64,000 nt of DNA from a phage. The notes under the pieces were generated by a model. It ran no database searches. It was not told the origin of the DNA and saw nothing but the letters and a program-made list of their open reading frames with translations. The translations under genes and the position numbers were made by a program. Position 1 is the first letter of the stretch. Every line of letters starts with the position of its first letter. Of the stretch, positions 57,362 to 58,992 are shown piece after piece. The stretch lies in the sequence record PZ452602.1. One strand, given 5' to 3'.

Positions 57362-58141
57362 TTAATTAAAAATATATACTTCATCAGTTCCATTCTTTTC
57401 TTTGGAATGATATATGTTAAAGACGTATTTTTTATTAAGATGCTTAACATTATATTTTTTAGACCATTCTTTAAGAAGAGTGTTTTCCTTTCCGTGATGC
57501 TCTAAAACATTCGACAATCCAAATTTTATTCCTCTGTCATTTAAAGAATCTAAAAGATTTAAAAGGTCTTTTTCTTCTTCTTCTGACCAAAATTTATTAT
57601 AATCAGCAACTGTTATAAGATATGGAGGGTCCACATATACAAAATCGCCATCTAGAATTTTGACATCTTTAAAATGCAATGAACTAAAGATTATTTTATC
57701 ACAATTTTGTTTAAAGTGATTAAAGCGTTTTTCACTATTTTTGTTTATAGTTCTTTTTCCAAACGGAGTAGTAAAATTTCCTTTATCGTTTATACGAATC
57801 ATATTACTAAATCCGTGAAAATGAAGAACATAAAGTAAAAGAGGATCTCTAGTTTTATTATAATCTTCACGTAATTTCAAAAACTCTTCTTTTGATGTTT
57901 TTGATAGTTTGTATTGCTTTATTACTTTTAAAACGTCATCCCATGATACATTAATAAGACGCTTATACATTTCAATAATTGGGGTTTGAATATCATTAGC
58001 CAATACAGGGCCATTGACGTTCAAAGACACTGATAAACCTCCACAAAATAAATCCACGAATCTGTCATATTTTGGAAAGTGAGGCTTAAGTTCAGGTAAT
58101 AATGATTGTTTATTACCTGTATACGCGATAGCTCCTAGCAT
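57362..58141 (-). CDS. dam: DNA adenine methyltransferase Dam
   Basis: 259 aa; SAM-binding FCGG and catalytic DPPY motifs; matches recalled T4/T2 Dam. Confidence 0.92.
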
Positions 58142-58701
58142 TATATTCTCTCATTTATTGCAGCAAAAAATGAATTATACAATTCATCATCATATGTATT
58201 TGATAATAATACTAACACGTTTTGTGATTTAGCATATTCATTAAACCTTGCTTGGATGGTTGGATTATCAGTAAATGATTCTCTTTTTGTCCATTTATTA
58301 CGCGGATAATATCCGCATGGCAAAAAATCTAATATCATCAATGACACAGGGTTTTCAGTTTTTGTGTATTCTTTTAATTTCTCTTTATCTTCTAAATATA
58401 TTCCAACCGAATCAATAGCTGTACCTCCACCAACTTGGTGTTTAATTTCAATTATATGCTTTTTACCGTTGCGAGAAATAACAATATCAAATCTTCTAGT
58501 ACGCTTCTTAGTTATAAAATTAGAGCAAAACAAATTATTTGATTTTTCAGTATCATCAATTAAAACCATTTTTTCTTGATAACTAACTGAACAATCAGTG
58601 AAATATTCTTTTACTTTATTAAGTATGAAATTTTCAACTACGGCAGATATTTTATATGAATCTCCGTTTAAAGCCATTTCATGCACAATTTTATTAATCA
58701 T
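58141..58701 (-). CDS. hypothetical protein (186 aa) with PD-(D/E)xK-like nuclease motif
   Basis: [19 protein letters not shown] gives D...(13 aa)...E-I-K spacing typical of PD-(D/E)xK nucleases; immediately upstream of dam; own early promoter. Confidence 0.5.
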
Positions 58702-58724
58702 TATATCATCCTCAGCAATTTATT

Positions 58725-58755
58725 TTATAATACCATAACAAGCTGAGAAAGTAAA
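58725..58755 (-). promoter_or_regulatory. T4-type early promoter
   Basis: GTTTAC (58750-58755), spacer, GTATTAT. Confidence 0.5.
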
Positions 58756-58791
58756 CAAATTTATGATAAATATTAATTTAAAGGAGGACAT

Positions 58792-58992
58792 ATGGTACAA
58801 AAATTAATGGCACTTGTTAATGCCATAAAAGGTAATAAGAAACGTATAGCTTTTACTATTTCTGCTATGGTAGGAATTTTACTCTGGAACTTTATTTTAT
58901 CACCTGTTGCAATTGCACATGGTATTAATATTCCAGTAGTTACTCTTGATACATTCGTAGATTTAGCATTTGCTTTAGTTGGGTTAATTTAA
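58792..58992 (+). CDS. small membrane protein (66 aa), opposite strand to surrounding genes
   Basis: Strong RBS GGAGGA 5 nt before ATG; two hydrophobic helices; stop overlaps gene 61 stop convergently. Confidence 0.45.
   Translation: MVQKLMALVNAIKGNKKRIAFTISAMVGILLWNFILSPVAIAHGINIPVVTLDTFVDLAFALVGLI

Follow-up and report, generated by a model that had tools for sequence, protein, structure and literature searches.

A putative PD-(D/E)xK endonuclease gene coupled to dam in T4-like phages: a candidate accessory restriction-modification cassette

We analysed a 64,000-nucleotide (nt) stretch of phage DNA (sequence record PZ452602.1, called the window below), with emphasis on the interval between the DNA methyltransferase gene dam and the primase gene 61. 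Two small open reading frames (ORFs) lie in this interval, ORF186, which abuts dam and encodes a putative endonuclease of 186 amino acids (aa), and ORF66, a gene for a small membrane protein of 66 aa that is read from the opposite strand. The genes on the minus strand follow each other in the order 56, dam, ORF186, 61 (primase), 61.1, 61.2, sp, 61.4, dmd and 41, with ORF66 inserted on the plus strand between ORF186 and 61 (Table 1). Over the 2.8 kb around ORF186 and dam, the window shares 98% identity with Serratia phage PhiZZ30, vB_EcoM_112 and phage T2; this stretch was matched in 509 phage records, nearly all of which are Tequatrovirus.

Table 1. Positions of genes and signals in and around the dam-61 interval of the window
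Feature	Position	Strand	Description
dam	57362-58141	minus	259 aa; D12-class N6-adenine DNA methyltransferase, T2-type allele; proposed modification (M) half
ORF186	58141-58701	minus	186 aa; putative PD-(D/E)xK endonuclease; proposed restriction (R) half
Early-promoter-like site before ORF186-dam	58727-58756	minus	consensus scan and direct reading of the sequence
Shine-Dalgarno GAGGA of ORF186	58709-58713	minus	7 nt before the ATG
Segment missing from T4	58229-58767		539 bp; alignment of the window with NC_000866
Accessory two-gene cassette, extent	57362-58779		relative to cassette-free Tequatroviruses (56, ORF66, 61)
Late-promoter-like GATAAATA	58765-58772	plus	19 nt before the ORF66 ATG
ORF66	58792-58992	plus	66 aa; small membrane protein gene, outside the cassette
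Gene 61 (primase)	58989-60017	minus	convergent with ORF66

The TAA stop codon of ORF186 (58143-58141) and the ATG start codon of dam (58141-58139) have base 58141 in common and read TAATG, as had been stated in an initial annotation of the locus, which was made from the sequence alone. The same annotation gave ORF186 an early promoter of its own. A consensus match is indeed present, consisting of GTTTAC (58756-58751), a 17/18-nt spacer with TG, and TATTAT (58732-58727); however, a scan of this AT-rich stretch returned 14 promoter-like sites, where 17 would be expected by chance, so that there is no excess of such sites. As a consensus match in AT-rich DNA, the predicted promoter is no more than plausible. 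The site is also annotated in two other phage records, as a promoter in that of JB75, and it is deleted in T4.

A terminator-like hairpin was seen on the minus strand at 58807-58826 (ATGGCATT-AACA-AGTGCCAT, followed by TAATTTTTGT), about 165 nt beyond the end of gene 61 and within ORF66 on the opposite strand. It could form the end of the gene 61 transcript ahead of the ORF186 promoter; the scan found two terminator-like sites against 1.2 expected, which is not significant alone.

Predicted fold and relatives of ORF186

The motif arrangement FDIV...EIK, which had been noticed in ORF186 at the spacing of a PD-(D/E)xK nuclease, is present as F71-D72-I73-V74 and E85-I86-K87, and the comparison of homologues bears it out. 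Across 10 sequences, the most distant of them at 31% identity, D72, E85 and K87 do not vary, and neither do E23, H88, Q89 and GTAIDS (93-98). An AlphaFold (AF2) model of ORF186, built from 8 family members, had a predicted local distance difference test score (pLDDT) of 79 and a predicted template modelling score (pTM) of 0.78. It shows an alpha-beta-beta-beta-alpha-beta core, which is the canonical core of the PD-(D/E)xK fold, and places E23 in helix 1, D72 in strand 2 and E85-x-K87 in strand 3. The top Foldseek matches of the model were PD-(D/E)xK nucleases only, with modest template modelling (TM) scores. A fold of this kind had been suspected in the initial annotation and is what both the AF2 model and Foldseek predict; on this modelling, a PD-(D/E)xK nuclease fold of the restriction-enzyme kind is well supported for ORF186. 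The ratio of nonsynonymous to synonymous substitution rates (dN/dS) was 0.08 in the comparison with a close relative and about 0.17 in that with a relative of 63% identity, which indicates purifying selection on ORF186. The protein belongs to PHROG 8706, a family of unknown function, and in the records examined it is labelled hypothetical or bears an evidently transferred name such as head protein. Searches of the PDB chains with the ORF186 sequence and with the family profile returned nothing meaningful.

Comparison with known restriction enzyme families pointed weakly to DpnII. The top Pfam match of ORF186 was DpnII (PF04556), with 15.7 bits (E 0.0099) against a gathering threshold of 23 bits. 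This family matched 5 of the 10 ORF186 family members, with a best E of 8.3e-5 that is likewise below the curated threshold, and the PADLOC profile REase_II matched 4 of the 10 (best E 5.3e-6; 1.3e-4 for the window protein). A DpnII alignment was assembled from database proteins reached via a DpnII sequence, which was validated before use (335.7 bits in Pfam, 99% identity to a database protein, and a family member named DpnII). When the ORF186 family was compared with this alignment by hhalign, an E of 7.5e-4 and a probability of 25% were obtained over 90 columns, in which E23, D72 and E85 of ORF186 stand opposite E152, D201 and E214 of DpnII and GGGTAID stands opposite GGSKLN. The secondary-structure elements of the two models occur in the same order within the aligned region. 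This region comprises residues 125-226 of DpnII, and the full-length DpnII architecture (about 280 aa, with an N-terminal helical part) was not matched. By this alignment, ORF186 would be the counterpart of the catalytic core at the C-terminal end of DpnII, with the N-terminal part of about 125 residues missing, a relationship that is suggestive but unproven.

As in the DpnII/MboI-type GATC systems (for example dpnM-dpnA-dpnB of S. pneumoniae), a gene for a D12 GATC-type methylase adjoins one for a PD-(D/E)xK-type endonuclease at this locus, and the best profile matches of ORF186 fall in the DpnII endonuclease family. There are also differences. DpnII has 288 aa and an ExN motif, whereas ORF186 has 186 aa and ExK and is without the N-terminal helical part; in ORF186-dam, the R gene comes first and overlaps the M gene by 1 nt, and there is a single methylase; and the DpnII system resides on a bacterial chromosome, whereas ORF186-dam is found in a virulent phage with modified DNA. 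The small type IIP enzymes of the MunI/EcoRI type are similar in size to ORF186, and EAKHQ of EcoRI resembles the E-x-K-H-Q of ORF186. These enzymes, however, have AATT as the core of their recognition site and are partnered by methylases of another class, and MunI is only 11% identical to ORF186 in sequence. A comparison with EcoRI, which had been prompted by the ExKHQ motif, showed no relationship at the level of sequence profiles (hhalign probability 0.2%).

Distribution and decay of the ORF186-dam pair

The ORF186 family is very small. Ten matches were found in 5.8 billion clustered proteins, and when 1.84 billion representative proteins were searched exhaustively with the family profile, 12 matches were returned, all belonging to the same family or its fragments, with no bridge to a known family. 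Scans of IMG/VR and JGI metagenomes yielded only T2-like and KPV15-like loci, and the known range of ORF186 comprises T4-like phages and a few metagenome contigs.

Wherever the context of an ORF186 homologue was readable, a D12 methyltransferase gene follows immediately downstream, and the homologue touches or overlaps it. This holds for four metagenomic T4-like contigs (L004-L007, 55-63% identity), for contig L025, and for two short contigs (L008 and L009) in which the homologue is only 31-33% identical. Klebsiella phage KPV15, a Jiaodavirus with a homologue of 43% identity, conforms as well, and its pair is located between rIIB and a topoisomerase gene and not at 56/61. No homologue without an adjacent D12 methylase was found among the phage, metagenome and contig loci examined. 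A probe for the dam/ORF186 junction showed ORF186 attached in 148 of the 181 phage records carrying this dam 5' end, the other 33 matching only up to the T4-type break. By tblastn, 182 records contain a Dam of at least 90% identity, and ORF186 was found in 164 records, in 155 of them with a coverage of at least 80%.

The partner methylases have diverged in step with the nuclease. The window dam matches Pfam PF02086 with an E of 7.9e-51, and its product has an identity of 97% with T4 Dam, of 62% with the KPV15 partner and of 52% with the partner in L009. The last of these contigs, which is 4.2 kb long and holds the most distant pair (31% identity), encodes after the pair a 726-aa protein (L009 1664-3844) with a faint HATPase_c match, and then a fragment with a CENP-B-type helix-turn-helix. 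The closest plasmid relatives of the T-even Dam (36-43% identity) were seen in Lactococcus, Enterococcus, Staphylococcus, Macrococcoides and Psychrobacter (L015-L020), and a restriction-endonuclease gene is adjacent in five of the six loci examined. DpnII-type endonucleases were sought beside these methylases, and AlwI-family and FokI-like type IIS systems were found instead, with an AlwI-family gene in three of the six loci and a FokI-like gene in one. The E. coli-type Dam genes on plasmids are about 25-28% identical to the T-even Dam.

At the Tequatrovirus locus, three states are observed: neither gene, both genes, or dam with a remnant of ORF186, as in T4. Many Tequatroviruses, such as teqhal, have 56, ORF66 and 61 without dam or ORF186. 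Alignment with teqhal revealed that the insertion is precise and lies between a common AAGCAAT and the ORF66 Shine-Dalgarno sequence; the AAGCAAT flank is followed by AAGGAGGACATATG (ORF66 start) in teqhal and by the dam stop codon in the window. The inserted unit is the R-M pair and not the nuclease gene alone. Compared across T-even phages, as the initial annotation had recommended, the interval is not conserved as a set of named genes.

A selfish mobile element would also account for a whole 1.4-kb cassette that is polymorphic for presence and absence and has precise junctions between conserved genes, as well as for the second locus of the pair in Jiaodavirus, and the T4 region already has a homing endonuclease gene, segF, beside gene 56. 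ORF186 would then be a homing-type enzyme that cuts cassette-free 56-61 alleles, with Dam as cargo or as protection of the site. A homing cassette had been among the options of the initial annotation, and the polymorphism on which this option can draw is real. The option is weakened by the enzyme itself. The free-standing homing genes of T-even phages, such as segF (56/soc in T4), are likewise optional genes of the same hyperplastic region, but they have a GIY-YIG or HNH fold, whereas ORF186 is of the PD-(D/E)xK type and always paired with a methylase. No Pfam match of the ORF186 family to GIY-YIG, HNH, LAGLIDADG, His-Cys or EDxHD was obtained at E values up to 1, no extra DNA-binding domain was present in the model or the Pfam scan, and neither the domain scan nor the loci examined gave evidence of homing. 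In no case does the nuclease move without its methylase, the divergence of the two has run in parallel, and the events observed are losses of R, no spread of R having been seen. Restriction-modification (RM) cassettes are themselves mobile units with selfish behaviour, and so this explanation overlaps with that of RM. We consider homing quite improbable.

Several independent lesions of ORF186 were found. In T4, 539 bp between TGAT direct repeats (58225-58228 and 58764-58767) are deleted, which takes away the ORF186 promoter together with residues 1 to about 158, so that about 20 C-terminal codons are left; the statement that ORF186 does not occur in T4 was correct in that only this 3' remnant is kept. 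Bas37 retains just residues 122-179. In laboratory T2 (LC348380, L013 1056-1601), a -1 frameshift is present in an A-run near the 3' end of ORF186 (window 58160-58170). The frameshifted product has 181 aa and ends in ...NSFLLQ, with its stop codon 13 nt before dam, so that a terminal helix, predicted with confidence, has its final seven residues replaced and the ORF is uncoupled from dam. The T4 remnant carries the same -1 frameshift, which is therefore older than the T4 deletion. It may explain why dam-minus mutants are obtainable in these strains. In G4500 and ESCO58, ORF186 was matched by tblastn in two pieces, which suggests that the gene is disrupted there. Genomes with dam and without ORF186 comprise those of the T4 type and the Bas37 type and distant Dam clades. 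Taken together, M without R is common and R without M was never seen, which is the pattern expected if the endonuclease needs its methylase.

Restriction-modification and alternative readings

It is well known that T2/T4 Dam is specific for GATC and that T-even DNA itself is Dam-methylated. This enzyme has for decades been regarded as a stand-alone phage methylase of unclear benefit. Given the nuclease fold of ORF186, the D12 methylase found beside it in every readable context and the junction retained in 148 of 181 records, we propose that ORF186 and dam constitute an accessory type II RM-like two-gene cassette in a subset of T4-like phages, to which we assign a probability of roughly 0.6. 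An RM-like module was one of the possibilities raised in the initial annotation, and it is the one that these data support. Nuclease activity, GATC specificity, methylation sensitivity and the biological target of ORF186 are what we infer from them.

The cassette might work as follows. A short early transcript from the T4-early-type promoter would cover ORF186 and then dam, and translation would be coupled by the stop/start overlap, the compact endonuclease (186 aa, catalytic core only) being made first and Dam second. The nuclease would cut at or around GATC when the adenine is unmethylated, and Dam together with the modified cytosines of the phage would shield the phage's own genome. The likely victims would be under-methylated foreign DNA in the infected cell, such as that of competing phages, and not the Dam-methylated host chromosome; since many Tequatroviruses are without dam, co-infecting phages are plausible in this role. 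The R gene would be dispensable and the first to decay, and the microhomology deletion in T4 would have left T4 Dam as an "orphan". T4 Dam, the textbook orphan methylase, is 97% identical to the Dam of the window and occupies the same place beside gene 56; it differs in that its upstream partner is deleted except for the last codons, whereas the partner is attached in most other dam records.

An RM system in a lytic virus has a precedent in the chlorella viruses, in which an endonuclease and an adenine methylase, such as the GATC-specific CviAI pair, act against non-self DNA. The ORF186-dam pair would resemble these systems in that a lytic virus carries an endonuclease together with an adenine methylase for GATC-type sites and has a modified genome. 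It differs in the host domain and in the enzymes, and the target in chlorella viruses is the unmethylated host chromosome; as the host here is already Dam-methylated, another target would be required.

A number of observations weigh against this interpretation. All restriction-enzyme profile matches of ORF186 are under the curated thresholds, and the hhalign probability to DpnII is low. The nuclease domains of Can2/Card1, Bax1 and McrC score nearly as high as MunI in the structural comparison, and PD-(D/E)xK folds are used for many functions. A scan of 185,579 species genomes of bacteria and archaea returned no homologue of ORF186, and no bacterial RM ancestor was identified; a literature search found neither ORF186 nor ORF66 described, which for ORF186 is a further point on this side. 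Enterobacterial hosts are Dam-positive, which leaves a methylation-blocked GATC enzyme without an obvious host target. The T4-like genera of the identified carriers very probably have hydroxymethylcytosine (hmC)-type DNA, and with such DNA self-protection by Dam may be needless and methylation sensitivity cannot be deduced. Furthermore, dam-minus mutants of T2 are viable, which fits an RM pair only if glucosyl-hmC blocks the enzyme or the T2 allele is inactive.

The DNA of the Klebsiella carriers was considered in this context. Among Klebsiella phages, 137 records contain a gp42 homologue (about 70% identity). The DNA of KP15-type Klebsiella phages contains ordinary cytosine and is sensitive to DpnI (PMC3620542). 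An argument from this DNA for a methylation-blocked nuclease was dropped, as KP15 is a Slopekvirus and the carrier KPV15 a Jiaodavirus; it is inapplicable because Klebsiella T4-like phages at large carry the gp42 homologue.

The modified cytosines of the carriers bear on a different explanation, in which ORF186 is aimed at cytosine DNA of the host, a plasmid or another phage, and the phage is shielded by hmC and its sugars and not by Dam. The enzyme would be indifferent to methylation or, in a DpnI-like variant, dependent on it. All identified carriers belong to T4-like genera with a dCMP hydroxymethylase gene, methylated GATC would be an abundant substrate in Dam-positive hosts, early expression would suit the breakdown of host DNA, and the nuclease fold and motif are the same as those on which the RM interpretation is built. 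However, a nuclease shielded by hmC alone would have no reason to stay joined to dam, and the linkage is strict over deep divergence, with M alone common and R alone never seen, as for an R that needs its M. In the methyl-dependent variant, hmC would have to block the enzyme on the phage's own Dam-methylated DNA, and no similarity of ORF186 to DpnI-type or other modification-dependent families was seen in the Pfam, fold and PADLOC comparisons. We regard an enzyme aimed at cytosine DNA as unlikely.

Methyl-directed repair likewise builds on a coupling to a GATC methylase. ORF186 might accordingly be a Dam-associated nickase, a nuclease of repair or recombination (MutH-like, telling strands apart at hemimethylated GATC, or structure-specific), or a catalytically silent DNA-binding modulator of Dam. 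The last of these variants is at odds with the strict conservation of the catalytic residues, and against all of them stands that ORF186 is dispensable and often lost while dam stays. We hold this group of functions to be rather improbable.

Within the RM interpretation, a stronger form is that the cassette is a weapon of phage against phage, which would cut unmethylated GATC even in hmC or glucosylated DNA and restrict co-infecting T-even relatives without dam, a state found in the majority of Tequatrovirus. This form is doubtful in our view. If true, it would explain why T-even phages carry Dam, and also why dam-minus mutants exist in T2, in which R is frameshifted, and in T4, in which R is deleted.

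A type II RM pair is a known kind of system; what is new here is the endonuclease family and its residence beside the T-even Dam. If ORF186 is the cognate endonuclease, the dam gene of T-even phages would be the surviving half of an RM cassette, which is intact in most natural carriers, the reference strain T4 being the degenerate case. ORF186 would then represent a new and very compact family of restriction enzymes, and the pair a rare case of a virulent phage with hypermodified DNA that has an RM system of its own. It would also open the directly testable question of restriction between competing phages.

ORF66 and other genes of the window

ORF66 is a real and conserved gene for a small inner-membrane protein and is separate from the cassette. 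It belongs to PHROG 2024 (E 1.4e-31), a family of unknown function, and its dN/dS is 0.1-0.2. The strong ribosome-binding site and the overlap with the end of the primase gene, both reported earlier, were confirmed, with a Shine-Dalgarno sequence GGAGG at 58783-58787 and an overlap of 4 nt with the end of gene 61. Two subfamilies of ORF66 have the motif W-N-x-x-x-x-P-x-x-x-x-x-G-x-x-x-P-x-V in common. ORF66 had been described as a two-helix protein, and this applies in part: all homologues conserve one hydrophobic segment of transmembrane length, at about residues 18-42 and preceded by a KGNKKR cluster, whereas the second hydrophobic segment (45-66) is above the threshold only in the subfamily of the window. 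In Gaprivervirus VR25, two tandem ORF66 paralogues, one of each subfamily, are located between 56 and 61 (L011 1495-1692 and 1701-1901).

The initial annotation had ORF66 missing from T4, which was not so. The gene is intact there at NC_000866.4 17738-17938 (L002 3739-3939), with two amino-acid differences. The T4 RefSeq record, which annotates nothing between dam and 61, omits this conserved gene for a small membrane protein; other T4 records list a hypothetical protein there.

The late-promoter-like GATAAATA is found before ORF66 in both the window and T4 and matches the T4 late consensus TATAAATA at 7 of 8 positions. The exact TATAAATA occurs at this position in contig L007 and Kanagawavirus Q7622, and NATAAATA in VR25a, p000v and teqhal; in nearly all ORF66 homologues, a strong Shine-Dalgarno sequence is preceded by (N)ATAAATA at a distance of 15-25 nt. 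These motifs suggest that ORF66 is probably expressed late, in the direction opposite to the early genes.

ORF186 and the antisense ORF66 had been grouped in the initial annotation into one module, possibly a toxin/immunity pair, and in the window they are indeed adjacent and divergent from a common 90-bp control region. The grouping did not survive a comparison of their distributions, since ORF66 is present in 697 phage records and ORF186 in 164. In every case ORF66 runs convergent to the end of gene 61, and it stays there in Mosigvirus p000v, Gaprivervirus VR25, Kanagawavirus Q7622 and teqhal, all of which are without dam and ORF186 at the locus; the KPV15 pair lies elsewhere and has no annotated ORF66-like neighbour; and T4 has lost ORF186 with ORF66 intact. 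We consider a toxin/immunity pair extremely unlikely.

The claim that ORF66 is the only plus-strand ORF in the early block was essentially right for 33-64 kb. The sole other candidate, a 134-aa ORF at 45504-45908, was rejected as a gene, being antisense to a lipoprotein-like ORF and having no PHROG match. The latter ORF (45635-45904, minus strand) has 89 aa, a GTG start and a lipoprotein-like signal (…LAVSLVGCTD), and it accounts for the spurious plus-strand ORF.

Other differences from T4 were observed elsewhere in the window. On the minus strand, 43748-45568 form an uninterrupted ORF of 606 aa with a GTG start for the topoisomerase large subunit. In T4, this function is divided between genes 39 and 60, with translational bypass, and the window gene appears to be the unsplit T2-type form. 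No segF is present between soc and 56 (56699-56783), unlike in T4. Gene 61.2 (60186-60542) encodes 118 aa (PHROG 4122), compared with 208 aa in T4, and its product matches only the C-terminal half of a longer family, PHROG 3781.

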